From Prochlorococcus sp. MIT 0801 (lineage in GTDB: Bacteria; Cyanobacteriota; Cyanobacteriia; PCC-6307; Cyanobiaceae), in NCBI RefSeq assembly GCF_000757865.1, contig NZ_CP007754.1, positions 1,770,001 to 1,802,000 of the forward strand: DNA of 32,000 nt. Reading direction: 5' to 3'. Made by a program: the position numbers and the translations under genes. Under the pieces are notes generated by a model, which saw only the letters and a list, made by a program, of their open reading frames with translations, had not been told where the DNA came from and made no database searches. Below, one piece after another: positions 3,339 to 27,140 of the stretch; position 1 is the stretch's first letter, and each line of letters starts with the position of its first letter.

Positions 3339-3364
3339 AATAATTTATATTCTTCTCTAAAAAT

Positions 3365-4264
3365 ATGAAGCAATTCTGGAATTGGAAAAATTATCAAATT
3401 GCATGGCAAGTAGAAGATAAAGATAAGAATTCTAAAATCGCAATAGTATTAATTCATGGTTTTGGAGCATGTAAAGATCATTGGAGATTTAATCAAAAAA
3501 ACATCAGCTCAATTGCACCATGCTATGCATTAGATTTAATAGGTTTTGGAGACAGTAGTCAGCCAAATTCACAGATTTCATATGAAAAGAAAACCTCTCA
3601 AAATTTCAATTATTGTTTTGATAATTGGAGTCAGCTAGTTTATGATTTCTGCAACGAAATAGTTAAAAAACCTGTCTTACTAATAGGAAATTCAATTGGG
3701 GGAGTTATTGCATTAAATACATCGAAAAAATTATCTCGAAAATGCTTAGGGGTAATATTAATTGATTGTGCTCAAAGGACAATGGATGATAAGCGCTTAG
3801 CTGAGCAATCATTATTAATGAGATTTTTTAGACCAGTGATTAAAACTTTTGTAAGACAAAGACTTTTAAGTTCCAACATTTTTAAAAATGCAGCAAATCC
3901 AACTTTTATTGAAAAAATTTTAAAAGTAGCTTATCCAAGTGGAAATAATGTTGATGAAGAGTTAATAGATTTACTTTTTCAACCAACCCAAAGAAAAGGA
4001 GCTCCTGAGGCTTTTCGAGGATTTATCAACTTATTTGATGATTATCTCGCTCCAGATTTACTAAAGAAATTGGATAATCCAGTACATTTAATCTGGGGTG
4101 AAAAAGATCCTTGGGAACCTGTTAAAGAAGCTCAAAAATGGTTTGAAACTTTTGAATGTATAAAAAGTTTAGATGTTATTCCTGAAGCGGGGCATTGTCC
4201 TCATGATGAGAAGCCAGAAAAAGTTAACCCTATTCTTACAAGAATAATTCAGGACGCCATATAA
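3365..4264 (+). CDS. alpha/beta-fold hydrolase
   Basis: ORF track, 299 aa. It has the HGFGA oxyanion-region motif, the nucleophile elbow GNSIGG (G-x-S-x-G) and a C-terminal GHCPHDEKP catalytic His context. The substrate is unknown. Confidence 0.75.
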   Translation: MKQFWNWKNYQIAWQVEDKDKNSKIAIVLIHGFGACKDHWRFNQKNISSIAPCYALDLIGFGDSSQPNSQISYEKKTSQNFNYCFDNWSQLVYDFCNEIVKKPVLLIGNSIGGVIALNTSKKLSRKCLGVILIDCAQRTMDDKRLAEQSLLMRFFRPVIKTFVRQRLLSSNIFKNAANPTFIEKILKVAYPSGNNVDEELIDLLFQPTQRKGAPEAFRGFINLFDDYLAPDLLKKLDNPVHLIWGEKDPWEPVKEAQKWFETFECIKSLDVIPEAGHCPHDEKPEKVNPILTRIIQDAI

Positions 4265-5256
4265 GCTTCAACTGATTCTCCAGTTTTTCGTAAGCCTCTC
4301 AAACCGTCTCTTTCTAAATTTCTGACTCTATCTCTACTAATACCCAAGACTCGACCAATACCTGTGAGACTCATTGGATCATCACCATCTATACCATATC
4401 TCATTCTTAAAACACGGTTTTGCAATTCCGGTAGTTGTTCAAGAAGTGTTTCCAAGTCACCTTTCATGCAGTCACTTTCTATTTGTTCGGAGGGCATATC
4501 AATTTCGTTAGACAATAAGTCCAATAAAATAGTGTCTTCACCATCGCCAATTTTGGTTTCCAAGCTAACCGGCTGACCAGCTCTACTCATTAAATCTTTA
4601 ACGTCACTTTCCGGTAACTCAACGTATTCAGATAATTCTTTCAAGGTTGGAGTTCTTGAAAGTTCTTGACTTAATTCACGTTGACCTTTTTTCAACTTGT
4701 TTAGCATTTCAGTTATATGAATAGGGAGTCTTATGGATCTACTCTTTTCAGCAATTGCACGTGTGATGCCTTGACGTATCCACCAGTAGGCATAGGTAGA
4801 AAACTTGTATCCACGAGTGGGATCAAATTTCTCAACTCCCCGAACCAAACCAATAGTTCCTTCTTGAATTAAATCAAGTAATTCCATATTTCTTTTTGTA
4901 TATTTCTTAGCAACACTTACTACCAAACGAAGATTGGCTGCAACCATTCTCTCTTTTGCTCTTCTCCCACTCTTCAACTTCTTTTTTAATTGAATTGGAG
5001 AAATTCCTGCCTTATCAGCGAAAAAGTTGATATCTGGCTTTTCCCCCAAATCACTCTCAAGTTCGGTCTCAAGATTTTCAAGTACAACAAGATCTTGAAC
5101 TTGTCTTCCTAATGTGATTTCCTGCTCGTGTGACAACAAAGGAACTCTTCCAATATCTCTTAAGTAAGAACGAACTAAGTCAATGTCCGATAAGGATCTT
5201 GCGGAAGCAGCGGAAGATGAATTCTTAGTCTTAGTAACCTCTACTGCCGTTGTCAT
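4249..5256 (-). CDS. RNA polymerase sigma-70 family factor, group 2 (RpoD-like)
   Basis: ORF track, 335 aa. Motifs are DLVRSYLRDIGRVPLLSHEQE (region 1.2/2.1), FSTYAYWWIRQGITRAI (region 2.3/2.4), and MSLTGIGRVLGISRDRVRNLERDGLRGLR (region 4.2 HTH). Confidence 0.9.
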   Translation of the reverse strand: MTTAVEVTKTKNSSSAASARSLSDIDLVRSYLRDIGRVPLLSHEQEITLGRQVQDLVVLENLETELESDLGEKPDINFFADKAGISPIQLKKKLKSGRRAKERMVAANLRLVVSVAKKYTKRNMELLDLIQEGTIGLVRGVEKFDPTRGYKFSTYAYWWIRQGITRAIAEKSRSIRLPIHITEMLNKLKKGQRELSQELSRTPTLKELSEYVELPESDVKDLMSRAGQPVSLETKIGDGEDTILLDLLSNEIDMPSEQIESDCMKGDLETLLEQLPELQNRVLRMRYGIDGDDPMSLTGIGRVLGISRDRVRNLERDGLRGLRKTGESVEAYMAS

Positions 5257-5356
5257 AGGTTTGTTGAGTTTTGTAAAGCTTACTACTAAGAATTGTAAAG
5301 ATCAAATAAGAATAGCTCGGCTTCCCACACTTTGAGTAAAAACACTCATTCAGCTT

Positions 5357-6766
5357 CTACCCCAATCTCCCTAAGAGCCAAGAAGCTGTTTTCAAATAAA
5401 TAAGAACTCCTGCAACATCTGTGGCAGTAGTAATAAATGGTGCAGACATTAAAGCGGGGTCTAAGCCCATACGATCAAAAAGCAAAGGTAATGATGCCCC
5501 TGCAGTGGCAGCAAGAGTTGTAATAGCAATCAAGCTTATTCCTACAGCAGTTGCGACCAAAGGTCCCTGTCCTTGCCACCAAGCAAAAGGTACAACAAAA
5601 ACAGCCATCAAAACTCCCAACAAGGCTCCTGCCAAAGTTTCTTTTGCAATAGCCCTAAACAGACCAAGTCGTTGTATTCGTTGAGTACTCAAACCGCGTA
5701 TAACAACCGTTGAGCTTTGAGCCCCAACATTCCCTCCTGCGCCAATCAATAAAGGAATGAAAGCAGTCAATAAAACCACTTGCTTTAAAACCTCGTCATT
5801 CATAGCAATCACTTGAGTTGTTAATCCATTTGCTAATACCAAAACGGCAAGCCAGACAATACGTCTTCTGGCTACAACGAATAAATTGCTTTGGAAGTAA
5901 TCATCTTCATCTCCAGCTTGAACCGCTCCAGCTGCATAAATATCCCTAGTAGCTTCTTGCTCAATGACATCAATCACATCATCAACAGTGACAATGCCCA
6001 CTAGTCTTTTCTCAAGATCAACAACCGGTAAAGCTAAAAAATCATATCTTTGAATTGCTCTTGCAACCTCTTCTTGATCAGTATCGGTTCTGACATTGAC
6101 AACCTCTCTGGTCATCACTTCTCCAATAAGTGATTCAGGATCGGCAACTACTAAATCCCTTAAAGATAAAATTCCAGTCAAATGCCTCTCTTTATCAGTC
6201 ACATAAAGGCTGTAAATGGTTTCTGAAAAAGTAGCTCTTTGTCTGACTAGTTTTAAAGCTTGTGAAACACTAAGAAATTCTTTGAGATCTATAAATTCTG
6301 TTGTCATTAATCTGCCAGCCGTTTCAGACTCATATCCCAACAGCTGAGCAGTTACTCTTCTTTCTTCGGGACTAAGCTCTGCAAGTAAACGCCTTACAAC
6401 TTTTGCAGGTAACTCATCAAATAATCGGACACGATCATCGGGTGACATTTCTTCAACCAAATCAAGTACTTCGTTTGATCTCAAACGATCTAAAAGATTT
6501 TGTTGTACCAAAGGATCTAAGTATTCGTAAACCTCGATTGCTTCGTTTTTATTCAAAAGCCTAAAAGCCAAGGCTTGTAAAATCATCGGCAAAGTTCCAA
6601 TAGCCTGAGCTATATCGACAGGCTGCACAGGGCTCAGAAGTAATTTGACGCCGTCGTAATTTCCCGCTGAAAGCATTGCCTCTAATTGCTGAGCAACTGC
6701 ATCAGCGACCAAACTGCAATTAGCCAAAGCTTGAGTCTCACGAGATACACCTATTTCTTCGTTCAT
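5357..6766 (-). CDS. mgtE: magnesium transporter MgtE
   Basis: ORF track, 469 aa. It has the N-domain PDDRVRLFDELP, a CBS pair (ALPVVD...LVGIVTVDDVIDVI), and a C-terminal TM domain with GAGGNVGAQSS and TTATDVAGVLIYL. Confidence 0.9.
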   Translation of the reverse strand: MNEEIGVSRETQALANCSLVADAVAQQLEAMLSAGNYDGVKLLLSPVQPVDIAQAIGTLPMILQALAFRLLNKNEAIEVYEYLDPLVQQNLLDRLRSNEVLDLVEEMSPDDRVRLFDELPAKVVRRLLAELSPEERRVTAQLLGYESETAGRLMTTEFIDLKEFLSVSQALKLVRQRATFSETIYSLYVTDKERHLTGILSLRDLVVADPESLIGEVMTREVVNVRTDTDQEEVARAIQRYDFLALPVVDLEKRLVGIVTVDDVIDVIEQEATRDIYAAGAVQAGDEDDYFQSNLFVVARRRIVWLAVLVLANGLTTQVIAMNDEVLKQVVLLTAFIPLLIGAGGNVGAQSSTVVIRGLSTQRIQRLGLFRAIAKETLAGALLGVLMAVFVVPFAWWQGQGPLVATAVGISLIAITTLAATAGASLPLLFDRMGLDPALMSAPFITTATDVAGVLIYLKTASWLLGRLG

Positions 6767-6829
6767 ATTTGGAGCAGCAAGCGACTATTATTTTATGGCT
6801 AACTTCCTTTTTTTATTACTTCCATATCC

Positions 6830-7306
6830 ATGTCCGTAAATATCAGCAAAGTGGAGGTTTTCTCTTTTAACAATCAGAAAATAACTTTTGATCATTACAA
6901 AGGAAATGTTTTATTGATTGTCAATGTCGCAAGCAAGTGCGGATTTACTAAGCAATATAAAGCCCTTCAACATCTTCAGGATAAATATGAATCCAAAGGC
7001 TTCAAAGTTTTAGGCTTTCCTTGCAATGACTTTGGGAACCAAGAGCCTGGGCAATTGGAAGAAATAAAAGACTTCTGTTCAACAACTTATGGAGTAAATT
7101 TCCAACTTTTCCAAAAAGTTCATGCCAGAGGCAAAACAACAGAACCATTTACTACCTTGAATCAATTAAGTCCAGCAGGAGACGTTGAGTGGAACTTTGA
7201 AAAATTTCTCATTAATAGTAAGGGAGATGCGGTCGAACGATTTAAAAGTTCAATAGAACCCGACAGTCTTGAAATTACTCAAGCAATAGAAAAATTACTC
7301 GATTAA
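6830..7306 (+). CDS. glutathione peroxidase-family thiol peroxidase (Cys type)
   Basis: ORF track, 158 aa. Motifs are VNVASKCGFT (peroxidatic Cys), LGFPCNDFGNQEPG and WNFEKFL. Confidence 0.85.
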   Translation: MSVNISKVEVFSFNNQKITFDHYKGNVLLIVNVASKCGFTKQYKALQHLQDKYESKGFKVLGFPCNDFGNQEPGQLEEIKDFCSTTYGVNFQLFQKVHARGKTTEPFTTLNQLSPAGDVEWNFEKFLINSKGDAVERFKSSIEPDSLEITQAIEKLLD

Positions 7307-7635
7307 GCATTTAATTTCTTAGCAAAGATGTGTCCTAAACCAATAGCCAAAACTCCCAACAATACAATTGATATCGAGTCAAGTAAAAACAATTGATAAA
7401 GGCCTTGATTTAATAATTTATACAAATAAAAAGACCAGCCACTAAAGGTAGTCATAGAGCCACAAAGTCCAACACAGAGAGTTAATTTATATCTCTTTAA
7501 AATATCTAATGAATTAAAAAAACCTAATAAAAAGCAACCAATTAAATTGACTATAAAAATTTCATCAATTTGCCATCGAAATACAGCTCCTAGAATGGCT
7601 CCTACAGATACTAAAAAAAATGTATTATTTTTAAT
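7303..7635 (-). CDS. crcB: second CrcB/Fluc fluoride channel subunit; no canonical start codon (proposed ATT start)
   Basis: Absent from the ORF track. My translation of the minus strand after the TAG at 7648-7650 is RGKDIKNNTFFLVSVGAILGAVFRWQIDEIFIVNLIGCFLLGFFNSLDILKRYKLTLCVGLCGSMTTFSGWSFYLYKLLNQGLYQLFLLDSISIVLLGVLAIGLGHIFAKKLNA*. It has CrcB hallmarks (GAxxRW..., GxxGxxTTFS). There is no in-frame ATG, GTG or TTG before GSM. An ATT at 7633-7635 is preceded by GAGGGG. The 5' end is tentative. Confidence 0.6.
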   Translation of the reverse strand: MKNNTFFLVSVGAILGAVFRWQIDEIFIVNLIGCFLLGFFNSLDILKRYKLTLCVGLCGSMTTFSGWSFYLYKLLNQGLYQLFLLDSISIVLLGVLAIGLGHIFAKKLNA

Positions 7636-7647
7636 ATCTTTACCCCT

Positions 7648-8022
7648 CTATTGATTACCTAAGAAAAATCCAAATGCAACAGCAATGATTCCTATAGACG
7701 CAGAAATGATAAATAACTTTAAAGCTCTAAAAAATTCCAATTGCAAACATAAATCAAACAGATCATATATAAATGAAGAGAAAGTACTGAGGCTTCCAAA
7801 AAAACCAATTGAAAAGAATAAAACTAATTGGTGATAATAAGTAAAAGTTCTAAACTGCTCTAGAAGTGCAAGGAATAAACCAACACAAAATGAAGAAAAA
7901 GTATTTATTATTAGTATTAAATAATATTTACTGAAGTTTAATTTTACTAATTTATTATGAATTTTAAATCTAATATTAGCACCTAGAATTGCTCCAATAG
8001 AAACAAGAAAGATATCAGACAT
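7648..8022 (-). CDS. crcB: CrcB/Fluc fluoride channel subunit
   Basis: ORF track, 124 aa, four hydrophobic segments. Motifs are SIGAILGANIRF and GFFGSLSTFSSF (the CrcB G-x-x-T-F-S type motif). Confidence 0.8.
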   Translation of the reverse strand: MSDIFLVSIGAILGANIRFKIHNKLVKLNFSKYYLILIINTFSSFCVGLFLALLEQFRTFTYYHQLVLFFSIGFFGSLSTFSSFIYDLFDLCLQLEFFRALKLFIISASIGIIAVAFGFFLGNQ

Positions 8023-8025
8023 ATA

Positions 8026-10364
<2,339 letters not shown>

Positions 10365-13163: not shown

Positions 13164-13919
13164 ATGTTTCGATCAATAAGATCCGATTTCTCAATTATTA
13201 AAGAGCGAGATCCAGCCGCAAAAGGATTCCTAGAAATTATTCTTTGTTACCCAGGTTTCCAAGCTTTGATAATCCATAGAATTAGCCATCAATTATGGAA
13301 ATCAAAACTTCCACTTATACCAAGAGTGCTGAGTCATATTTCAAGGATTTTCACAGGTGTAGAGATTCATCCAGGAGCAAAGATTGGGCGTGGAGTATTC
13401 ATTGATCATGGCATGGGAGTTGTTATTGGTGAGACTAGTGAAATAGGTAGTCGCTGTCTTCTTTATCAAGGAGTAACTTTGGGAGGAACTGGTAAAGAAA
13501 GTGGCAAAAGGCATCCAACACTTGAGGATAATGTTGTTATTGGAGCCGGTGCCAAAGTACTTGGAGCTATTCACGTAGGAACTAACACAAGAATTGGAGC
13601 TGGCTCAGTGGTAGTTAAAAACGTAGAAGCCAACAGTACTGTTGTTGGAATACCTGGCAGAATTGTTCATCAAAGCGGTGTAAAGATCAACCCTCTTGCG
13701 CACTCTGCTTTGCCTGACACTGAAGCAAATGTAATAAGAAATTTAATGGAGAGAATTGATCAATTAGAAGCTGAAATTCTTTCGCTCAGAAATTCAGCAA
13801 AAAATAAGCTAAAAAATTCTGAACTTATAAATAGTGAAATAAGACCTTCTCAGAGTTTAAAAGATAAAGAAATAATAGAGTTCCTAGGAGAGGAAAACAA
13901 TATTGAAGAACTAAACTAA
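13164..13919 (+). CDS. cysE: serine O-acetyltransferase
   Basis: ORF track, 251 aa. The hexapeptide-repeat core is GAKIGRGVFIDHGMGVVIGETSEIG, LYQGVTLGGTG and RHPTLEDNVVIGAGAKVLG. Confidence 0.9.
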   Translation: MFRSIRSDFSIIKERDPAAKGFLEIILCYPGFQALIIHRISHQLWKSKLPLIPRVLSHISRIFTGVEIHPGAKIGRGVFIDHGMGVVIGETSEIGSRCLLYQGVTLGGTGKESGKRHPTLEDNVVIGAGAKVLGAIHVGTNTRIGAGSVVVKNVEANSTVVGIPGRIVHQSGVKINPLAHSALPDTEANVIRNLMERIDQLEAEILSLRNSAKNKLKNSELINSEIRPSQSLKDKEIIEFLGEENNIEELN

Positions 13920-14708
13920 AAAGGGTAACTCCCTAGTACTTTTTTGCAATAAGAAAAAAGAAATCAGAATACCAACTATATTCACTAATAAAGTGATAAA
14001 AACAAGCTTATAATCAACATTACCTTGAATTAGCGACACCCTAAGTGGTTCGAGAATTTTGTATATCAAATTATAATTAGTTATCCATTCCAAACCTCCG
14101 AGATTTTCCTTTCTATATAATATGGGTGAGGTTAGAAAAACTAATTGCAATATAATTGGTACTAATTGTGCAAAGTCTGTATATCTGACACCAACTAAAC
14201 AAATAATAAGAGGAAACCAATATAAAAACATTAAAAGATTAATAAATGGAAGCCAAGAAAACAAAATAATATTAAATATAAGAGATTTTTTAATAAATAA
14301 AAGAATAAAGAATACAAGTGAAAAAGACTGGAAAAAGGTTTGAATTTGGAATGCCCATTCTTCTAGTGTATAGAACAGTGGATTAATATTTATGTTCTTT
14401 ATATTCTGAGAGTTATGAGCAAATAAATCAGGCGCAGAAGATATTGAAGAAGAAATAGTATTCCAAATAACTAAACCAATTCCCAAGTATACAAAATATT
14501 CTTTAAAGTCATTAACTGAAAAAACCGTTCCATAAACTATACCCAGTGTTGATATTGACAATAAATTAGAAAAACCTAACCAAAAGCTTCCAAGATTGGT
14601 TTTTGCAAATCTTGCTCGTGTCCTTGATGTAGCTGTATACAACCAAAATCTTCGAGAATTCCAGGCAAATTTTAAATTATCAAGAAGCATAATTATTATT
14701 ATAATCAT
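13911..14708 (-). CDS. ABC-2 type polysaccharide/glycan export permease (Wzm/KpsM/TagG-like)
   Basis: ORF track, 265 aa. It has the N-terminal basic motif RTRARFAKTNLGSFW followed by about 6 hydrophobic segments, typical of ABC-2 permeases. It is translationally overlapped with the upstream ATPase gene. The start is probably the ATG at 14690 (MLLDNLKFAW) rather than 14708. Confidence 0.7.
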   Translation of the reverse strand: MIIIIIMLLDNLKFAWNSRRFWLYTATSRTRARFAKTNLGSFWLGFSNLLSISTLGIVYGTVFSVNDFKEYFVYLGIGLVIWNTISSSISSAPDLFAHNSQNIKNININPLFYTLEEWAFQIQTFFQSFSLVFFILLFIKKSLIFNIILFSWLPFINLLMFLYWFPLIICLVGVRYTDFAQLVPIILQLVFLTSPILYRKENLGGLEWITNYNLIYKILEPLRVSLIQGNVDYKLVFITLLVNIVGILISFFLLQKSTRELPFLV

Positions 14709-16053
14709 GAGTATGATAATAATTTAAGGCGGCATCTAGCTGACCATCATAAACAACAGATCCATGGTTAAAAACTATACCTCTAAAGCAAAATTGTTTC
14801 AAAAGTTGTTCAGAGTGACTTGCTAAAATCAATGTGGTTGCGGAATCCATAAAAGATTGCATTCTCTCCTGAGCTCTTTCAAAGAAATCTGCATCACCAG
14901 TTCCAAAACCTTCATCAATCGCTAAACATTCATGTGGGTATGAAGTCAACATAGAAAAAATCAAACGTGCACACATTCCCTCGCTATATGTTTTGATAGG
15001 TAAATTTATAAATGAACCTAAACCAGAAAAAGTCACAATATCTTCTAAAAAAATATCAAAACCTTTCAAGTTATTATTTATCATTAAATAATAGGCTTTG
15101 GAAGCATCCAATCCACTTAGTTCATTACTTGTCAAAAAAGTTTTTTGGAGCATAGGATAAACCTCTATTTTTTTTATAAATTGACCAGAGTTAGGTGTAT
15201 AAATACCAGATATTAACCTCAGAAAACTACTTTTTCCCGAACCATTATGACCAATCAATGCAACTCGTTCACCATTCATAATAGTTAGATTTATATTTTT
15301 TAAAGCTTCAATATTAGTTCTCTTATCCTTATATACTAATTCTCCACCTATGACACTATTAAACATTTTTTCTGTTAATATTTTTGTAAACTTTCTATTT
15401 TCTGCGCAATAAATTGGTATTTTTAAACTTACATCTTTCAACTGTATTACAGGATCCTTAAGTATTTCGATAGAGTCTAAGGTAATTGATTTCAAGGTAT
15501 CCATAACATGATCTATTGAGGCTATCTTTTCATGATTAAATTGACGAAGAAATACAAATCCTGCATTTAAAGCTTTACCTGTTTTCCATGGATCAAGAGA
15601 TTCAGGCTGATATAAATTAATCCAACTTATGCTAGAACTTACTTTTTTTGTGAATAACTCTGCTGCATTAACCTTGCTCTCCAAAGTTATATAATCTTTT
15701 CTTAATTGATCATTGTTTTTAATATTCCTATCACAAGAAATCAATTCACATACAAAGTCACTAATAATACTTTTACCCTGATCAATTGAAGAATGCCAAT
15801 TATTAATACAATCAAAATCAACTTTCCTACCAAATAAATTCATATGAATATAATTAATCTGGGATTCAATTGATCTATCAGAAAGTATCGATTCCGTATA
15901 TTCATCTTGTGTAGAAATTATCTCTGAAATATCATTAATCGTAGTACCTGGAGGAGAATTGATTAACCAATAATTGATACCAGAAGGATCAGCAGGTCTT
16001 CCAAAATAAGCTATATATAGTTTTTGTATGTGACTAGATTTAACATTCATCAC
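14680..16053 (-). CDS. ABC-2 system ATP-binding protein (Wzt/KpsT/TagH-like) with an N-terminal extension of about 200 aa carrying two DUF4214-like repeats
   Basis: ORF track, 457 aa. The NBD has Walker A GHNGSGKSS, the signature YSEGMCARL (YSxGM type as in Wzt/KpsT), Walker B CLAIDEG, and H-loop ASHS. The N-terminus has IQKLYIAYFGRPADPSGINYW and INYIHMNLFGRKVDFDCINNW. The start is GTG 16053 or ATG 16050. Confidence 0.8.
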   Translation of the reverse strand: MMNVKSSHIQKLYIAYFGRPADPSGINYWLINSPPGTTINDISEIISTQDEYTESILSDRSIESQINYIHMNLFGRKVDFDCINNWHSSIDQGKSIISDFVCELISCDRNIKNNDQLRKDYITLESKVNAAELFTKKVSSSISWINLYQPESLDPWKTGKALNAGFVFLRQFNHEKIASIDHVMDTLKSITLDSIEILKDPVIQLKDVSLKIPIYCAENRKFTKILTEKMFNSVIGGELVYKDKRTNIEALKNINLTIMNGERVALIGHNGSGKSSFLRLISGIYTPNSGQFIKKIEVYPMLQKTFLTSNELSGLDASKAYYLMINNNLKGFDIFLEDIVTFSGLGSFINLPIKTYSEGMCARLIFSMLTSYPHECLAIDEGFGTGDADFFERAQERMQSFMDSATTLILASHSEQLLKQFCFRGIVFNHGSVVYDGQLDAALNYYHTHDYNNNYAS

Positions 16054-20266: not shown

Positions 20267-20458
20267 ATGGCTAAAGTAACAATTGATGGCAAAGAATACA
20301 ATACTGACGAGCTCAGTGATACAGTTAATTCTCAGCTTTTAAGTTTACAGTTTGCCCAAAATGAACTTAAAAGATTAGATGCTCAAATTGCTGTTTTCAA
20401 AACTGCCGTATCAGCTTATTCTCAAGCTCTTAAAGATGAATTATCAAAACAAAGTTAA
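20267..20458 (+). CDS. 63-aa acidic, predicted coiled-coil protein of unknown function (first gene of the secretion-like module)
   Basis: ORF track: MAKVTIDGKEYNTDELSDTVNSQLLSLQFAQNELKRLDAQIAVFKTAVSAYSQALKDELSKQS. It has an ATG start and lies 11 nt upstream of the next gene on the same strand. It has no signal peptide, no Gly-Gly leader and no Cys. Coding status is inferred from operon position and a clean heptad-like sequence. Confidence 0.55.
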   Translation: MAKVTIDGKEYNTDELSDTVNSQLLSLQFAQNELKRLDAQIAVFKTAVSAYSQALKDELSKQS

Positions 20459-20469
20459 CAGCAATTTAA

Positions 20470-21186
20470 ATGGATGAATTAAAAAATCTTGATCAAGCAA
20501 CTATAAAACTTTTACATAAACATGATATTTTACTTGCTTTAATTAAAAATATTTTTTATGAAAAAAGTATTAACGATGTTGAATTAACTTCTATAGAGAA
20601 AAAAAATATTCAAGATCAATTCCGAAAGGAACATAAACTAAATAGCGATGAAGAGTATTACGAATGGATTAAAACTAATAATTTTAAAAAAGATGAATTT
20701 GAAACTAACATTTATTATAATGAAAAATTGAAAAAACTCTGTATAGATAAATTCTTCCACAAAACTGAATCTAGGTTTTTAAAAAGAAAATCGGAACTTG
20801 ATATTGTCGTATATAGCCTAATCAGATTAAAAGATCAATTTCAAGCTAGAGAAATTTACTTAAAACTAAAAGAGCAAGAAGCTAATTTCAATGATTTAGC
20901 ATTCCAATTCTCTGAGGGAGTTGAAAAGGTAACTAAAGGATTAATAGGTCCAATACCTCTTAACAAAGCTCACCCCAAAGTAATCGAAATCCTTAGTTCT
21001 ATAAAACCAGGAGAAATTTACAAACCTTTTACTCTGGATAATTGGCACATTATTCTTCGGTTAGAATCCTTTGAATCTGCAACTCTAGATCACAATATGA
21101 AGTTACATATGGCTAAAGAATTACTAATGGAATGGGTAGAGGAACAATCAAAGTCTATAATGAGTAGATTATTGAGTAATCCATAA
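20470..21186 (+). CDS. parvulin (PpiC/SurA/PrsA)-like peptidyl-prolyl isomerase-domain protein, no signal peptide
   Basis: ORF track, 238 aa. The C-terminal half, AREIYLKLKEQEANFNDLAFQFSEG...GLIGPIPLNKAHPKVIEILSSIKPGEIYKPFTLDNWHIILRLE, aligns by eye to the parvulin rotamase fold (E. coli PpiC ...DFGKLAKKHS...GDLGEF...FGYHIIKV). The N-terminus MDELKNLDQ is hydrophilic. Confidence 0.6.
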   Translation: MDELKNLDQATIKLLHKHDILLALIKNIFYEKSINDVELTSIEKKNIQDQFRKEHKLNSDEEYYEWIKTNNFKKDEFETNIYYNEKLKKLCIDKFFHKTESRFLKRKSELDIVVYSLIRLKDQFQAREIYLKLKEQEANFNDLAFQFSEGVEKVTKGLIGPIPLNKAHPKVIEILSSIKPGEIYKPFTLDNWHIILRLESFESATLDHNMKLHMAKELLMEWVEEQSKSIMSRLLSNP

Positions 21187-21206: not shown

Positions 21207-24164
21207 ATGGATAACATCAATACTCTTTCACTTAACAACTTACCACCATTCAAACTATTAAGTGAAAAAGCCTTAAACAAAGTCTTAGGTAGCTCAAAAT
21301 CTGTCATTTTTAATATCGGCCAACCATTATCTAAGGAAGAAAATATACAAGATTCAATATTATTTATTCTTGATGGAACTGCAAGACTAATAGGTCAAGA
21401 TGGCAATGAGAACTATACTATTGGCAAATTAGGTGCAGGAGCATTTGTTGGGTTAGCTTCATTGCTTAGAGTCGAAGGTTGTGAAGAAGTAAGTGCCATC
21501 ACTAAAGTAATTGCTTTATCAATACCTGATCAAATTATTATTAGTTTATATGAAGAAGAACCAGATTTTAGAGAATGGTGCAAAAGTAAACTCTTTCCTG
21601 CAGAAATACATTCTTTAGTGAGAAATCTGGCAAATGAAAACGCATTACAAGAGAATAACTTCATGTCTTTCTTTAAAGATTCATTAGCTCAAGTTAATCT
21701 ACATACTCTTCAAAATAATGAATATCTAAAAGAAGATAAAAATAGAATATTTTTTACTGCAAGTTCAAATATCGAAAATCATAATTTACATCAAATAATA
21801 GATCATAAGACTAAATTAATTGCCCGTCCACCGTTAGAGACAAGAATAATTTCTATACCTATAGATTTTTATAGATCAATAAGCAAACAGAAGGAAGATA
21901 TTTCACAGAATGAAACTGAAATAAACAATAATCTCATAGAAACCGATTCTAAAAATTTAGCACCAATTTTACCTAGCCGCAGTAGTATTGATTTGGGAAA
22001 AAATACAAATAAGAAATTTAAAAACAGAGCAATAATCAGAGCAAAAGGTAGGGCTGAAGAGGCACTTGCTTGTCTACAAATGTTATCTATACAAATGGAT
22101 TTGCCATTCAGAAAAGATGCTGTTCAAAAAATCTTAAGAGATAATTTGTCTGATGGCAGAGCACCAACAATGGAGCTTTTAGGCGGCATATGTGCAATGC
22201 TTGGATTACATGCTGGAAGTGCAAGAATATCCGCAGAGAGTGGTACTCGGTTGCAAACTCCATCTCTAATTCCATGGAAAGGAAGTTTTGTATTGGTTCA
22301 AGAAAGTAATTCCAAAGGATTAGTTATTGCATCACCTAGTGAGGGTGAATTAATAATTAATTCCGAAGAACTAGAGGATATTTTTCCCGATGGTATTGAA
22401 GTTCTATTTGTAGATAGAACCAACTCAAGTCCTCAAATTAAATTTGGAGCAAATTGGTTTTGGCCATCACTTAAAAAATATAAAACAGTTTTATCTCAAG
22501 TATTTTTAGCTTCATTCATCGTTCAACTTTTTGGTTTAGCTAATCCTTTATTAATCCAGGTTATTATCGACAAAGTCATTAATCAAAGAAGTTTAGACAC
22601 TCTTCAAATACTTGGTATTGCCCTCATTTTTGTAACTATTCTTGGTGGCATAATGGGTGGTCTAAGAACATTTATGTTTACAGAAACTACGAATCGTATA
22701 GATACCAGATTAGGATCTGAAGTTATAGATCATTTATTAAGATTACCACTTAATTATTTTGATAAAAGACCCGTTGGTGAACTCGGAAGTCGAATTGCAG
22801 AATTAGAAAAGATTAGAAACTTTTTAACTGGTCAAGCCCTTACAACTGTTCTTGATGCGGCATTCTCTGTAATATATATATTAGTGATGGTTATTTATAG
22901 CTGGCTATTAACATTTATAGCTTTAGCAGTTGTTCCTTTACAAGTTGGTTTAACTTTAATAGGAACTCCTTTAATAAGAAAACAAATAAGAGAGGTCGCA
23001 ATTGAAAATGCAAATACACAAAGTCACCTAGTTGAAGTTCTTACTGGAATTCAAACGGTAAAAGCACAAAATGTTGAAACTGTTAGTCGTTGGAAATGGC
23101 AAAACCTTTACAATAAATACATTTCCAGAACATTTGAGAGAACCATAACTGGGACAGCTTTAAACGAAACTAGTCAAGTATTACAGCAACTCTCTCAACT
23201 GCTAGTCCTTTGGGTTGGTGCTTCTTTAGTTTTATCTGGGAAACTAACATTAGGTCAACTAATTGCTTTTAGAATAATTTCTGGTTACGTAACACAACCA
23301 CTTCTAAGACTCAGTACTATTTGGCAAAACCTACAAGAATTGAGAGTTTCTTTCGAAAGATTAGCCGATATAATTGACACCCCTGAGGAATCTTCAGAAT
23401 CCGACAAAACCAACATTCCACTACCATCTATAAAAGGTAAAGTAGAGTTCAAAAATGTATCTTTTGCTTTTGATAACAGTGAAATTAATGTATTAAATAA
23501 CATTAACCTTGATATAGATCAGGGAACTTTTACTGGAATAGTTGGACAGAGCGGAAGCGGAAAAAGCACTTTAATGAAATTGCTTCCAAGACTATATAGC
23601 CCTAATTCAGGAACAATAAAAATAGATAACTATGACATTAATAAAGTTGAACTTTATTCTTTGAGACGACAAGTAGGTATCGTTCCACAAGACCCTCTGT
23701 TATTTGCTGGAACAGTCAGTGAAAATATTGCATTAACTGATCCTGAGGCATCTAGCGACAAAATTGTGCAAGCTGCAAGAATCGCTGGTGCTCATGAGTT
23801 TATAATGGAATTACCAAATGGATATAGTTCAAATGTAGGAGAGAGAGGAGCTGGGCTTTCAGGCGGTCAAAGACAAAGAATTGCAATAGCTAGAACAATA
23901 ATCAGTAAACCTAAACTTCTTATAATGGATGAGGCTACTAGTGCACTTGATTACAACACTGAGAGGCAAGTCTGCGACAACTTAAAAGAATTCTGTAAAA
24001 ACACAACAGTATTTTTCATTACGCACCGCTTAAGTACAATCAAAAATGCCGATTTAGTTGTGATGTTACACCAAGGATCATTATGTGAAATTGGCACCCA
24101 TGAAGAGCTAATGAATAAACTTGGAAGGTACTATGCTCTTTATAGACAGCAGGAGGCAAGTTGA
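21207..24164 (+). CDS. ABC exporter (type I secretion / bacteriocin-exporter architecture): cNMP-binding-like domain + C39-peptidase-like domain + 6-TM domain + NBD
   Basis: ORF track, 985 aa. The NBD has Walker A GQSGSGKST, signature LSGGQRQRIAIAR, Walker B LLIMDEATSALD and H-loop ITHRL. The TM domain spans roughly residues 425-700. The N-terminal CAP-effector-like segment is FNIGQPLSKEENIQDSILFILDGTARLIG...GAGAFVGLASLL. The C39-like segment covers about residues 275-405. Confidence 0.85.
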   Translation: MDNINTLSLNNLPPFKLLSEKALNKVLGSSKSVIFNIGQPLSKEENIQDSILFILDGTARLIGQDGNENYTIGKLGAGAFVGLASLLRVEGCEEVSAITKVIALSIPDQIIISLYEEEPDFREWCKSKLFPAEIHSLVRNLANENALQENNFMSFFKDSLAQVNLHTLQNNEYLKEDKNRIFFTASSNIENHNLHQIIDHKTKLIARPPLETRIISIPIDFYRSISKQKEDISQNETEINNNLIETDSKNLAPILPSRSSIDLGKNTNKKFKNRAIIRAKGRAEEALACLQMLSIQMDLPFRKDAVQKILRDNLSDGRAPTMELLGGICAMLGLHAGSARISAESGTRLQTPSLIPWKGSFVLVQESNSKGLVIASPSEGELIINSEELEDIFPDGIEVLFVDRTNSSPQIKFGANWFWPSLKKYKTVLSQVFLASFIVQLFGLANPLLIQVIIDKVINQRSLDTLQILGIALIFVTILGGIMGGLRTFMFTETTNRIDTRLGSEVIDHLLRLPLNYFDKRPVGELGSRIAELEKIRNFLTGQALTTVLDAAFSVIYILVMVIYSWLLTFIALAVVPLQVGLTLIGTPLIRKQIREVAIENANTQSHLVEVLTGIQTVKAQNVETVSRWKWQNLYNKYISRTFERTITGTALNETSQVLQQLSQLLVLWVGASLVLSGKLTLGQLIAFRIISGYVTQPLLRLSTIWQNLQELRVSFERLADIIDTPEESSESDKTNIPLPSIKGKVEFKNVSFAFDNSEINVLNNINLDIDQGTFTGIVGQSGSGKSTLMKLLPRLYSPNSGTIKIDNYDINKVELYSLRRQVGIVPQDPLLFAGTVSENIALTDPEASSDKIVQAARIAGAHEFIMELPNGYSSNVGERGAGLSGGQRQRIAIARTIISKPKLLIMDEATSALDYNTERQVCDNLKEFCKNTTVFFITHRLSTIKNADLVVMLHQGSLCEIGTHEELMNKLGRYYALYRQQEAS

Positions 24165-25300
24165 TTAATAAAATTAAAAAACTAAATATTTCTTCGTTAT
24201 ATGAAAAAAACTTTTGGATAAATAATAAAAAAATTATTCTTGATAAAATCAAAATCAATAAATTAGTTAAAAAATTCAATTATTTAAGACAGAATAATAT
24301 TATTGGAAAAACATATAATCAAATTTCACTTGATAAAATAGAACCTAATAGATGGATTAAGAAATTAAAAGATTTCAGTGAAAAAGCTATTGCTCGAAAC
24401 TCAAATGAAGTTGTTTTAAAAGATTCAACTTATTGGGCAAGCGCAATTAGTTGGTCAATTATGGGTGGAACTGTGTTTGGCTTAAGTTGGTTGGCATTTG
24501 CCAAGACAGAAGAGATAGTAATCGCTCAAGGGAAACTCGAACCAATAAATGGTGTAGTAGATGTTCAAATGCCTTTTGAGGGTATCATTGGAGAAATACT
24601 TGTTGAGGAAGGTGAGAAAGTTGAAAAAGGTCAAATCCTACTTAAATTAGATACCGAAGTGACTGATGCAAGGAGAAAAGCATTATCTAATAGTTTATTG
24701 ATTAGTAAAGATTTGCTAGAAAGATATAAAGCTCTTGTTAAAGAAGGGGCAATTGCAGAAATACAGCTTCTCGATCAACAAAATAAAATTTCTGAATTAG
24801 AAAGCAGGATAGCCGAGTCAAACGTCACACTAAAATATCAATCGATTATTGCACCTTCAAATGGAATAGTTTTTGATTTGAAGCCAAAAGCATCTGGTTT
24901 TGTTGGGAGAACAACCGAGCCAGTCATGAAAATAGTCCCTATTGAAAAACTAAAAGCAACAGTAGAAATAGCAAGCAAAGATATAGGTTTTGTAAGTGTT
25001 GGTAAATCAGTGGATATAAGTATTGATTCATTTCCTGCTACAGATTTTGGAGTAATTCACGGACAGGTAACTAAAATTGGATCCGATGCATTGGTGCCCG
25101 AGCCATCTCAAAATAAGGGGTTTAGGTTCCCTGCAGATATCAAATTGGAATCACAGCACTTAATCTTAAAGAATAAAAAAAGGCTACCATTGCAAACAGG
25201 TATGAGTCTTACTGCAAATATAAAATTAAGAAAAGTTAGCTATCTACAATTGCTTTTAAATAATTTTGAAGACAAAGCTGATTCTTTGAGAGCTCTATAA
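24161..25300 (+). CDS. HlyD-family membrane fusion / periplasmic adaptor protein
   Basis: ORF track, 379 aa. The TTG start overlaps the ABC gene stop by 4 nt, with AGGAGG at 24151-24156. It has one TM segment (WASAISWSIMGGTVFGLSWLAF), a lipoyl-like motif (GIIGEILVEEGEKVEKGQILLKLD), a short coiled-coil hairpin, and a beta-barrel (IIAPSNGIVFDL...). Confidence 0.8.
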   Translation: MINKIKKLNISSLYEKNFWINNKKIILDKIKINKLVKKFNYLRQNNIIGKTYNQISLDKIEPNRWIKKLKDFSEKAIARNSNEVVLKDSTYWASAISWSIMGGTVFGLSWLAFAKTEEIVIAQGKLEPINGVVDVQMPFEGIIGEILVEEGEKVEKGQILLKLDTEVTDARRKALSNSLLISKDLLERYKALVKEGAIAEIQLLDQQNKISELESRIAESNVTLKYQSIIAPSNGIVFDLKPKASGFVGRTTEPVMKIVPIEKLKATVEIASKDIGFVSVGKSVDISIDSFPATDFGVIHGQVTKIGSDALVPEPSQNKGFRFPADIKLESQHLILKNKKRLPLQTGMSLTANIKLRKVSYLQLLLNNFEDKADSLRAL

Positions 25301-25303
25301 AAA

Positions 25304-25909
25304 TTGAGTATTAACTATAAAAAAAAGTTTCTCCATGTTGGATGCGGAGTTAAAGACATCTCTAATACTCCTTTTAAGTTATCAAGTTGGGAAGAAATTA
25401 GATTTGATATTGATCCGCAAGTAAATCCTGATGTTGTTGGAAGTATGACAGAGATGAATAACATTGAAAATAATTCACTAGATGCAATTTTCTCATCTCA
25501 TAATATTGAGCATTTATATCCACACGAAGTCACAGTAGCATTAAAAGAATTTCAAAAAAAACTTAAACCTCAAGGATTTATTTTGATAACATGCCCTGAT
25601 TTAAAGTCTGTTTGTTCACTTGTTGTACAAGATAAATTACTCGAACCTGCTTATGAAAGTGGCAAAGGACCTATCTCGCCATTAGATATAATTTACGGTC
25701 ACAGAAGTTCAATTGCAAAAGGTAATACATTTATGGCACATAAATGCGGATTCACAGAGAAAGTGCTTATCAAAGTTCTTCAAAAATCTGGTTTTTGTCA
25801 AGTTATAAGTCAAACGAGAAGTTCGGAATTTGATATTTGGGCATTGGCAACTTGTAAGGAATGGCAAGAAAAAGATATAAAATCTTTAGCAATAGATTTA
25901 TTTCCATAA
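25304..25909 (+). CDS. small class I SAM-dependent methyltransferase
   Basis: ORF track, 201 aa. Motif I is FLHVGCG near the N-terminus, followed by an acidic-loop D (IRFDID) and LDAIFSSHNIEHL (Methyltransf_11-like). The TTG start lies 3 nt after the HlyD stop and in the same frame. Confidence 0.7.
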   Translation: MSINYKKKFLHVGCGVKDISNTPFKLSSWEEIRFDIDPQVNPDVVGSMTEMNNIENNSLDAIFSSHNIEHLYPHEVTVALKEFQKKLKPQGFILITCPDLKSVCSLVVQDKLLEPAYESGKGPISPLDIIYGHRSSIAKGNTFMAHKCGFTEKVLIKVLQKSGFCQVISQTRSSEFDIWALATCKEWQEKDIKSLAIDLFP

Positions 25910-25910
25910 T

Positions 25911-27140
25911 TCATAAAAGACTTTTAACCCATGAAATTTGCTTTGGTAAGCATATAGTTTTCAAATCGTAAGTTTTCACAATAAATTTTCTGGCATTCTC
26001 AGATAGTTTTGATCGTAATTTAAAATTATTTAAAATACTTAAGATTTGTTTTGAAAGATCCTCAAAATCAAAAAAATCTACATACACACCATTTTCATGA
26101 TCTTTTATAATTTCATGTAAGGGTTCTGTATTACTGACAATCACAGGACAACCAATACTCATTGCCTCCAATAAACTCCAAGAGAGTACAAATGGATAGG
26201 TTAAATATACATGAATAGTTGATATTTGTAAAACAGACATATATTTATCATATGTCAAAGTTCCAAGAAAGATTACTCTTTTATATTGATCATCGGTCAA
26301 TTTCTCTTTAACCTCATTGGCATAAATATCTTTCCAAGTTTTACCATTCTCAGGGAGGGTTCCATAACTAGTTGAGTCTCCTCCTACAATTAATACATAT
26401 AAATTAGGCCTTTCCTTTAATATCTTAGGTAATGACCTCATAAAAGTATGAAATCCTCGATAAGGCTCGAGATTACGATTGACAAAGGTTATAATCTCAT
26501 TACTTTTTGATAATTTCAATCCAGAATCTAAAGTAATTTCAATCGAATCATTAGGCCTTAATAAAGTAGTATTTATACCATCATGAATAACACTAATTTT
26601 TTTTTGGAAATATTCTGGAAAGGTACTTTTTTGCCATTTGGTTGGACTAATACCAACATCAGCAATTTGTAAATGAAGATTATTATTAATATTTTTCATC
26701 ATTACTCTACATGGATCACCAGGGTCCGTAATCGGAAATTCAGGATCAAAATTAATATCTGCTCCTAAAGAACGATAAAAGAATTCGCAGTAAATAGCTA
26801 TTTTGGCATCAGGCCATATTTCTTTTAAAAATAGACTTTCTCCCCATGCTGGATGAGAAATTATAAGATTTGGTTTATATCCTTTTTGACATAATTCATA
26901 TGCAGCCCTAAAACAATATTCTCCTCTAATAGTTTTAGTTTCTAAATCAGTAAGCCAAGGATGTATATTTTTCGAACTTGATCGTTTAATAGGATAATTA
27001 AAAAATCGTATTCCATCAATATTTTTAGAAACTGATTGTGAATTGGTCAAGGTGGTTATATTAAGTCCTTCACGAACAAGAGCAGGGGCTAAATGAATAA
27101 ACTGGGCTGGAAAATTTTGATGTATAAATAATATATCCAT
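25911..27140 (-). CDS. GT-B fold glycosyltransferase (group 1 / GT4-like)
   Basis: ORF track, 409 aa. The C-terminal motif LLEAMSIGCPVIVSNTEPLHEIIKDHENGVYVDF is the EAM-x-G-x-PV...E...G signature of retaining GT4 enzymes. It is the last gene of the minus-strand operon. Confidence 0.75.
   Translation of the reverse strand: MDILFIHQNFPAQFIHLAPALVREGLNITTLTNSQSVSKNIDGIRFFNYPIKRSSSKNIHPWLTDLETKTIRGEYCFRAAYELCQKGYKPNLIISHPAWGESLFLKEIWPDAKIAIYCEFFYRSLGADINFDPEFPITDPGDPCRVMMKNINNNLHLQIADVGISPTKWQKSTFPEYFQKKISVIHDGINTTLLRPNDSIEITLDSGLKLSKSNEIITFVNRNLEPYRGFHTFMRSLPKILKERPNLYVLIVGGDSTSYGTLPENGKTWKDIYANEVKEKLTDDQYKRVIFLGTLTYDKYMSVLQISTIHVYLTYPFVLSWSLLEAMSIGCPVIVSNTEPLHEIIKDHENGVYVDFFDFEDLSKQILSILNNFKLRSKLSENARKFIVKTYDLKTICLPKQISWVKSLL

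Follow-up and report, generated by a model that had tools for sequence, protein, structure and literature searches.

A cyclic-nucleotide-binding-like module lacking the canonical ligand residues precedes a C39-like domain lacking a catalytic triad in a predicted Sll1180-family exporter of Prochlorococcus sp. MIT 0801

In Synechocystis, Sll1180 and Sll1181 are reported to export the S-layer protein Sll1951 together with the TolC-like protein Slr1270 (Agarwal 2018, as cited in PMC11594277 and PMC11053131). HetC of Nostoc PCC 7120 represents a paralogous type, in which a cyclic nucleoside monophosphate (cNMP)-like domain precedes an active C39 peptidase domain and an ATP-binding cassette (ABC) transporter core, and it has been dissected experimentally (PMC10986499). 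The cNMP-like domain of HetC binds ppGpp (dissociation constant about 59 uM) and GTP, not cyclic AMP (cAMP) or cyclic CMP (cCMP), and is essential in vivo, while the N-terminal region of the protein is stabilised by Zn2+ (PMC10986499). C39-like domains (CLDs), of the kind found in HlyB of Escherichia coli, have been tied to repeats-in-toxin (RTX) cargo and to a tethering, chaperone-like role (reviewed in PMC8277102). Here, an exporter gene in a stretch of 32,000 nucleotides from Prochlorococcus sp. MIT 0801 (contig NZ_CP007754.1, positions 1,770,001 to 1,802,000; hereafter the window) is compared with these systems. The best overall explanation, with a probability of about 0.72, is that it encodes an exporter of the Sll1180 family with a dead C39-like docking domain and a cyclic-nucleotide-binding (CNB)-like regulatory input that does not bind cNMPs.

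The architecture itself is already known, being that of a widespread cyanobacterial type I secretion system (T1SS) family with Sll1180 as a studied member and HetC as a studied paralogous type. A first-pass annotation of this DNA knew of no described case of a pseudo-cNMP domain placed ahead of an inactive C39 domain; the Sll1180 family shares this combination. What is added here are residue-level maps of both dead sites with evidence of their conservation, the recognition of a folded, probably CNB-like domain in what had been taken for a linker, a conserved pseudo-parvulin partner and a short list of residues for mutagenesis. No published account of the degenerate sites, the folded 'linker' or the pseudo-parvulin partner was found in the open-access literature.

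The gene is an intact single open reading frame (ORF) whose product of 985 amino acids (aa) is recorded under the name 'peptidase domain-containing ABC transporter'. This protein, the product of the gene upstream of it, and IF-3, GyrB, a sigma factor and Gmd from the same window are all identical to proteins of Prochlorococcus sp. MIT 0801. It lies third in a cassette of four co-oriented genes, in the order 63-aa gene, PpiC/PrsA-like gene, ABC gene and HlyD-family gene. Pfam identifies four domains in its product (cNMP_binding, Peptidase_C39, ABC_membrane and ABC_tran), and the gene is made up as follows:

21207..24164, plus strand: predicted HlyB/Sll1180-type type I secretion ABC exporter gene of Prochlorococcus sp. 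MIT 0801 (985 aa; AIQ98262.1)
21234..21587, plus strand: CNB-like domain 1, residues about 10-127, beta-roll and C-terminal helices (Pfam cNMP_binding, residues 37-117)
21444..21497, plus strand: remodelled phosphate-binding cassette FVGLASLLRVEGCEEVSA, residues 80-97 (from profile alignments to the cGMP sites of protein kinase G, PKG)
21588..21896, plus strand: predicted folded middle domain, residues about 128-230 (AlphaFold, Foldseek)
21897..22031, plus strand: predicted disordered linker, residues about 231-275, rich in Asn, Lys and Ser (from the predicted local distance difference test, pLDDT)
22032..22421, plus strand: C39-like domain (CLD), residues about 276-405 (Pfam Peptidase_C39, residues 277-397, 28.1 bits, cutoff 22)
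22059..22061, plus strand: codon of E285, at the catalytic Cys position (PCAT1 C21, HlyB Y9; profile alignments and hmmalign)
22284..22286, plus strand: codon of S360, at the catalytic His position (PCAT1 H99; profile alignment)
22332..22334, plus strand: codon of S376, at the catalytic Asp position (PCAT1 D115, HlyB D100; profile alignments and hmmalign)
22500..23303, plus strand: transmembrane domain, residues 432-699 (Pfam ABC_membrane, 179.7 bits; aligned to HlyB over its whole length)
23493..24161, plus strand: nucleotide-binding domain (Pfam ABC_tran, 121.6 bits, residues 763-912)

The transporter core is of the HlyB type. All motifs of the nucleotide-binding domain are intact (Walker A GQSGSGKST, signature LSGGQRQR, Walker B LLIMDEATSALD and H-loop ITHRLS), the C39 fold lacks its catalytic Cys and a HlyD-family gene adjoins. 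HlyB structures match the protein at E 1e-157, and the best curated model is TIGR01846 (type_I_sec_HlyB), with 697.3 bits over residues 288-982 compared to 390 bits for the bacteriocin-type model. Like E. coli HlyB (PDB accession nos. 3ZUA, 7SGR and 8DCK), the protein combines these transmembrane and nucleotide-binding domains with a residue other than Cys at the nucleophile position (Y9 in HlyB, E285 here) and a HlyD partner, and its expected cargo would likewise be of the RTX type and uncleaved. HlyB, however, has nothing N-terminal to its CLD, whereas about 275 extra residues stand ahead of the C39-like domain here.

Within this type, similarity over the full length and a shared domain order place the protein in the Sll1180 family. 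The Synechocystis PCC 6803 'HlyB family' protein BAA18265.1 (1011 aa), found in the cluster of one of the relatives (P0092), is 46.1% identical over 1002 alignment columns, and the alignment is collinear (residues 9-984 with 12-1006). The two proteins have in common R60, G82, R88, C92, E93, A97, E133, R213, C289, W357, P377 and G380. By name and length, BAA18265.1 is most probably Sll1180 (UniProt P74176, 'toxin secretion ABC transporter'), and the E-value for the N-terminal 420 aa in the Sll1180-family comparison is 4.5e-26. At E <= 1e-3, relatives of these 420 residues form 623 clusters at 50% identity, a large cyanobacterial family. Sll1180 is of similar size (about 1000 aa), with the same succession of CNB-like domain, middle domain, linker, C39-like domain, transmembrane domain and nucleotide-binding domain, and a HlyD gene also adjoins its gene. 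It differs in having Ala at position 285 (Glu here) and Asp at position 83 (Leu here), and in the Prochlorococcus window the ABC gene has no substrate gene nearby and is preceded by a 63-aa and a PrsA-like gene. The ABC gene can thus be assigned with high confidence to the inner-membrane component of a cyanobacterial T1SS of the Sll1180 (HlyB-analogue) family, with N-terminal sites that are dead but conserved.

CNB-like domain 1 retains its fold. The Pfam cNMP_binding model scores 30.2 bits over residues 37-117 (cutoff 27.5), a profile of 27 relatives matches the cNMP domains of PKG and protein kinase A (PKA) at a per-domain E of about 1e-12, and an AlphaFold model of residues 1-420 (built from a 21-sequence alignment; mean pLDDT 82, predicted template modelling score, pTM, 0.74) matches CNB proteins in Foldseek at E of about 1e-10, far better than chance would give. 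Block-mean pLDDT in this domain is about 81-95. The beta-roll fold is thus present, but the canonical cassette G-E...R-[ST]-A is not. In the profile alignments the cassette Gly corresponds to G82, Glu to L83, Arg to G91 or a one-residue gap, Ser/Thr to C92, the conserved Ala to E93 and the final Ala to A97. Both the Gly-Glu pair and the Arg had earlier been taken as substituted; this is correct for the Glu and the Arg, but the Gly is kept, so the manual alignment behind that claim was one residue out of register.

Across the family, G82 is invariant (126/126), while position 83 is mostly Leu (74, with Ala in 20, Trp in 11 and Glu in 9) and position 91 mostly Pro (65, with Ala in 29, Gly in 25 and Arg in 1). 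C92 is found in 119 of 126 members, E93 in 124 and A97 in 122, and the cassette, with the consensus pG..vGlaSlLr..pCE.v.As, is the most conserved stretch of the domain. R60 is likewise invariant (123/123). A possible role of R60 as a charge swap of the D170-R209 salt bridge of PKA RIalpha was ruled out by recounting the registers: D170 aligns to D49, which is variable, and R60 aligns to A48 of CAP and to the Asn of PKG 'GKVNV'. Judged from its sequence, CNB-like domain 1 is without the canonical means to bind cAMP or cyclic GMP (cGMP), both the Glu and the Arg being absent, and it is remodelled, not decayed. Its description as a 'pseudo' domain therefore holds in the sense that the canonical site is lost, as it does for the C39-like domain, and fails if decay is meant, as the cassette is the best-conserved part of CNB-like domain 1.

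The residues that follow had been described as a low-complexity, Asn-rich linker spanning residues 125-270. Asn does make up 13% of this segment, compared to 6.5% of the whole protein, but residues 126-228 are predicted to be folded and only residues about 229-275 to be disordered. In the context of the 1-420 model the block-mean pLDDT of residues 126-228 is mostly 82-92, with a single dip to 68, and residues 126-235 folded alone give a pLDDT of 87 and a pTM of 0.78. The predicted fold consists of three helices, a small sheet and one helix, and it holds the invariant residues E133 (128/128) and R213 (132/132). A Foldseek search of the PDB with the middle domain alone returned CNB domains for all of the top 50 matches (HCN, PKG, PKA RIalpha and CRP-family proteins; probability 0.84-1.0, E 7e-4 to 5e-3, TMq 0.35-0.57), and the best matches of the whole 1-420 model are tandem-CNB proteins. 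In the predicted structure the middle domain is probably a second, stripped-down CNB-like domain. Residues 1-230 are matched best in structure by the tandem CNB modules of PKA regulatory subunits and PKG, but neither domain here has a functional cassette, and the second, at about 100 aa, has a reduced beta-roll and lacks detectable sequence similarity. In the linker proper, pLDDT drops to about 30 between residues 229 and 251 and then stays at 64-74 as far as residue 280; the only disordered segments of the model are residues 1-6, 229-251, 268-270 and 412-420. The linker varies in length and sequence across the family alignment.

The C39-like domain is related to active peptidases by fold. With a profile of the family's C39 region, the E-values are 2e-5 for PCAT1 and 0.11 for HlyB, and the alignment to TIGR01846 starts with residue 288 paired with position 3 of the model. 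The protein shares with PCAT1, ComA and LahT this N-terminal fold and an 'AC' motif (C25 in PCAT1, C289 here), whereas the PCAT1 residues Cys21, His99, Asp115 and Gln15 correspond to E285, S360, S376 and, at the oxyanion position, A279, and there is no double-glycine (GG)-leader substrate. That Glu285 occupies the catalytic Cys position, and that the expected His and Asp are missing, had been proposed from a manual alignment, which proved right: profile alignments and hmmalign agree on the register (in the hmmalign check, HlyB residues from 94 onward were verified against the HlyB structure match), and the alignments guided by hidden Markov models place no Cys/His/Asp triad at the functional positions. 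Among about 133 unique relatives, position 285 is Glu in 105, Ser in 8, Ala in 8 and Gly in 6, and Cys in none. Position 360 is Gly in 63, Ser in 42, Ala in 10 and His in 2 of 136, and position 376 is Ser in 98, His in 13, Val in 13 and Asp in none.

With triad and oxyanion Gln absent, the domain is predicted to be proteolytically dead and of the HlyB CLD type. It is more degenerate than the CLD of HlyB itself, which keeps His83 and Asp100 where S360 and S376 stand here. A His stacked on a Trp (H83/W77 in HlyB) has been proposed as a hallmark of CLDs; no such His is found here, the His position being S360. W357 is kept in 114 of 136 members and lies 3 residues before the His position, compared to a spacing of 6 between W77, at best a possible equivalent, and H83 of HlyB. 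HetC is similar in being a cyanobacterial ABC exporter with a cNMP-like domain ahead of a C39 fold, and the spacing is comparable (in HetC the cNMP domain covers residues 60-146 and the Cys is residue 347, whereas here the domain covers residues 37-117 and the Cys position is 285), but HetC keeps the catalytic residues C347 and H420 of a real peptidase, as in the peptidase-containing ABC transporters (PCATs), where the present protein has E285 and S360. As the triad is absent, the protein is of the HlyB/CLD type rather than the HetC type.

On the first helix of the C39-like domain, C289 (codon 22071-22073) is kept in 128 of 134 family members; about 95% of the family have it, as they do C92 (codon 21480-21482), which adjoins the near-invariant E93 in the remodelled cassette. 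The two Cys residues may have a metal-related or redox function.

Strong purifying selection acts on both remodelled domains throughout the family. Since the N-terminal domains have lost their active sites and yet are strongly conserved, they appear to be repurposed rather than decaying.

The genes that accompany the ABC gene in the cassette are the following:

20267..20458, plus strand: 63-aa gene, first in the cassette, weakly DUF6447-like (Pfam DUF6447, 21.4 bits, below the cutoff of 27)
20470..21186, plus strand: PrsA/PpiC-like protein gene, 238 aa (AIQ98261.1, 'peptidylprolyl isomerase'; Pfam Rotamase, 35.4 bits)
24161..25300, plus strand: HlyD-family membrane fusion protein gene, 379 aa (HlyD_3, 63 bits)

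These were compared with 84 related loci, 80 of them metagenomic and 4 others, the metagenomes having been scanned with an alignment of the C39-like domain plus the first transmembrane segment; a scan of genome contigs gave one distant locus only (L001, Prochlorococcus AG-355-O17). The HlyD-family gene has a TTG start that overlaps the stop codon of the ABC gene by 4 nt, and the two genes are translationally coupled; HlyD is directly downstream of the ABC gene in 51 of 54 related loci. The PpiC/PrsA-like gene is directly upstream of it in 53 of the 70 loci with enough flank. Its product matches PrsA1 (5htf) at E 1e-4 and is without a signal peptide. The parvulin site has changed family-wide, the first His being replaced by Ser116 (63/64), Cys113 of Pin1 by Gly150 (63/64) and the second His by Trp (57/64). 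The protein is thus a conserved partner in the cassette with, by these replacements, a degenerate parvulin active site, and, lacking a signal peptide, it might serve the T1SS as a dedicated chaperone in the cytoplasm. A weak similarity to TIGR04500 'peptide maturation system protein' (33.9 bits, cutoff 180) is also seen.

Since the C39-like domain is predicted to be dead and the CNB-like domain lacks canonical cNMP binding, a docking or gating function is favoured over leader cleavage, and the earlier suggestion to this effect is a reasonable reading. By analogy with HlyB and Sll1180, the C39-like domain would tether an unfolded protein, probably an RTX-type surface or S-layer protein, and feed it into the transporter, from which it would exit via HlyD and a TolC-like channel encoded elsewhere. 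The cytoplasmic PrsA-like protein would act as a holdase that keeps the substrate unfolded. The N-terminal CNB-like module, made up of one clear and a probable second domain, would provide a regulatory input that senses neither cAMP nor cGMP. Instead, its signal might be (p)ppGpp or a guanine nucleotide, following the example of HetC, or a thiol, redox or metal signal through C92-E93. The module would in turn determine where the C39-like domain sits or whether it is available.

Candidate substrates are seen in other loci. ORFs with 4-20 RTX-like repeats of the GGxGxD type lie beside the homologous cassette in four of them:

L003 (Nostocales), 3346-8768: RTX-like ORF
L001, 11518-11979, minus strand: RTX-like ORF
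L022, 7992-8633: RTX-like ORF
L023, 7185-8039: RTX-like ORF

Most Prochlorococcus and marine Synechococcus genomes are without class III adenylate cyclases and cAMP receptors (PMC4284465), and the CNB-like domain is kept in picocyanobacteria despite these mostly missing cyclases. A sensor role is favoured for the module because its pocket is the most constrained part, because the related domain of HetC binds ppGpp and GTP but not cAMP and is essential, and because picocyanobacteria keep the domain while mostly lacking cyclases and cAMP receptors; a regulatory sensor is a tentative assignment, somewhat short of even odds. The fuller proposal, in which the remodelled module senses a non-cNMP ligand and so switches the T1SS at the protein level, with the pseudo-parvulin as a dedicated chaperone, is more speculative still. 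If true, it would describe a ligand-gated T1SS, and a cassette assembled from three repurposed 'dead' folds.

Several observations weigh against the reading as a Sll1180-family exporter with a CNB-like regulatory input. The TIGR01846 score falls below the curated cutoff of 725.55, a near miss for a model that is without the extra 275 N-terminal residues, and the HlyD-family protein scores 162.6 bits with TIGR01843, under its cutoff of 208.65. BAA18265.1 is linked to sll1180 by name and length, not by a locus-tag record. The call of a second CNB-like domain is one of predicted structure, since hhalign gives a probability of 2.4% for the middle domain against CNB-like domain 1, indicating no sequence relation, and the Foldseek E-values are marginal. 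In the 32-kb window there is no substrate gene, RTX or other, with a single chance RTX motif only, and no TolC gene. The analogy with ppGpp sensing is drawn from HetC, a paralogous type with an active peptidase and the only one with a known ligand. Lastly, R60, E93, E133 and R213 could equally form an interdomain salt-bridge network without any ligand.

This last point leads to the strongest of the alternatives, that the CNB-like module is a ligand-free structural or docking platform for the PrsA-like chaperone, the substrate or the nucleotide-binding domain, with the four charged residues in interdomain salt bridges and the E93 carboxylate filling the former phosphate site. These four invariant residues are spread over CNB-like domain 1 and the middle domain, which pack confidently against each other in the model (pTM 0.74), and the PrsA-like partner is conserved; from what is generally understood of CNB structures, a Glu in place of the small Ala would fill the phosphate pocket. 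However, domains that serve only as scaffolds usually let the old pocket drift, whereas here the cassette, C92 included, is best conserved, and the related domain of HetC binds a small ligand. A platform is the main rival, only somewhat less probable than the sensor role.

A working cAMP or cGMP receptor, with secretion gated by cNMPs, is far less probable. The cNMP_binding score above cutoff, the intact fold and the kept G82 speak for it, but the Glu and Arg that contact ribose and phosphate are present in only 9 and 1 of 126 members, respectively, and apparently never together. A negative Glu also stands at the conserved Ala position, where it should block the cyclic phosphate both sterically and electrostatically. 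The HetC domain, moreover, bound neither cAMP nor cCMP, and picocyanobacteria mostly lack adenylate cyclases.

It is just as improbable that the protein is a PCAT-like peptide-processing exporter that uses another nucleophile, such as C289, and exports the 63-aa protein. C289 is highly conserved and the 63-aa gene is co-oriented with the PpiC-like gene and lies 12 nt upstream of it in this clade. However, active PCAT1 has an equivalent Cys, C25, four residues past its real nucleophile C21, which argues that C289 is no substitute nucleophile, and the His and Asp are missing as well. The HlyB-type model is also preferred by far over the bacteriocin-type model (697 compared to 390 bits). The 63-aa protein is helical, with neither a GG/GA leader motif nor an obvious secretion signal, and is missing from most cassette loci, being found in only 3 of the 84. 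Its homologues (60-89 aa) occur only in marine metagenomes, in close relatives of the LLI-like Prochlorococcus lineage, always in the order gmd, 63-aa gene, PpiC-like gene and ABC gene and 12-13 nt before the PpiC-like gene (L085-L093, L005 and L051). As a general partner or substrate it is therefore ruled out, and the conserved partner is instead the PpiC/PrsA-like gene. The absence of a GG-leader gene nearby, pointed out in the first-pass annotation, was borne out: none was seen beside the ABC gene, where the intergenic gaps are too small for another gene.

That both N-terminal domains are functionless relics drifting to loss can be dismissed as highly improbable. In its favour, the canonical functional residues are gone, and identity between the N-terminal region and its nearest relative in the databases is only about 40%. 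Against it, about 130 unique members, drawn from marine, freshwater and filamentous cyanobacteria, share residues with little or no variation, the AlphaFold models are confident and the cNMP-like domain of HetC is essential in vivo.

Type I secretion is usually described as transcriptionally regulated, and when the ABC component of a T1SS engages its substrate is poorly understood. For the Sll1180-family exporter as read here, a conserved non-cNMP CNB-like module precedes a substrate-docking domain across a whole cyanobacterial family, which spans the genetically tractable Synechocystis Sll1180 and the abundant marine picocyanobacteria. Residues R60, C92, E93, E133, R213 and E285 make post-translational control of S-layer or RTX export directly testable. 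The names 'peptidase domain-containing ABC transporter' and 'cyclic nucleotide-regulated exporter' are misleading for this family, as neither activity is expected.

The cassette is located in a cell-surface island. It is flanked on one side by secA and gmd and on the other by a glycosyltransferase gene, asparagine-synthase-like and methyltransferase genes and ABC-2 polysaccharide-export genes. The ABC protein and Gmd are each the sole member of their own 90%-identity cluster; GyrB and a sigma factor encoded in the same window (8355-10322 and 4249-5256) cluster with Prochlorococcus NATL1A. These lone clusters, together with the low identity of the N-terminal region to its nearest relative, suggest that the island is fast-evolving. 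The ABC-2 type polysaccharide-export pair is located at 14680-16053 and 13911-14708 (both minus strand), and its ATPase has an N-terminal DUF4214-like segment (24.6 bits).

The HlyD gene is followed after 4 nt, in the same orientation, by a gene for a small class I methyltransferase (25304-25909, plus strand). With homologues in only 2 related loci, this gene probably does not belong to the conserved cassette. A family 4 glycosyltransferase (GT4; Glyco_trans_4_3 and Glycos_transf_1 domains; 25911-27140, minus strand) adjoins the cassette in the window and also in three unrelated loci (L037, 11414-12661; L076, 8422-9669; L003, 1171-3310). In the Nostocales locus L003, one copy of this glycosyltransferase is fused to a Rotamase (PpiC) domain. 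The GT4 neighbour and the Rotamase fusion hint that the secreted protein could be glycosylated in the cytoplasm ahead of export. In L004 and L003, gene calling breaks the homologous ABC gene into several pieces; in L004 (an ENA contig with a coverage of 2.2) the split probably reflects assembly frameshifts at low coverage.

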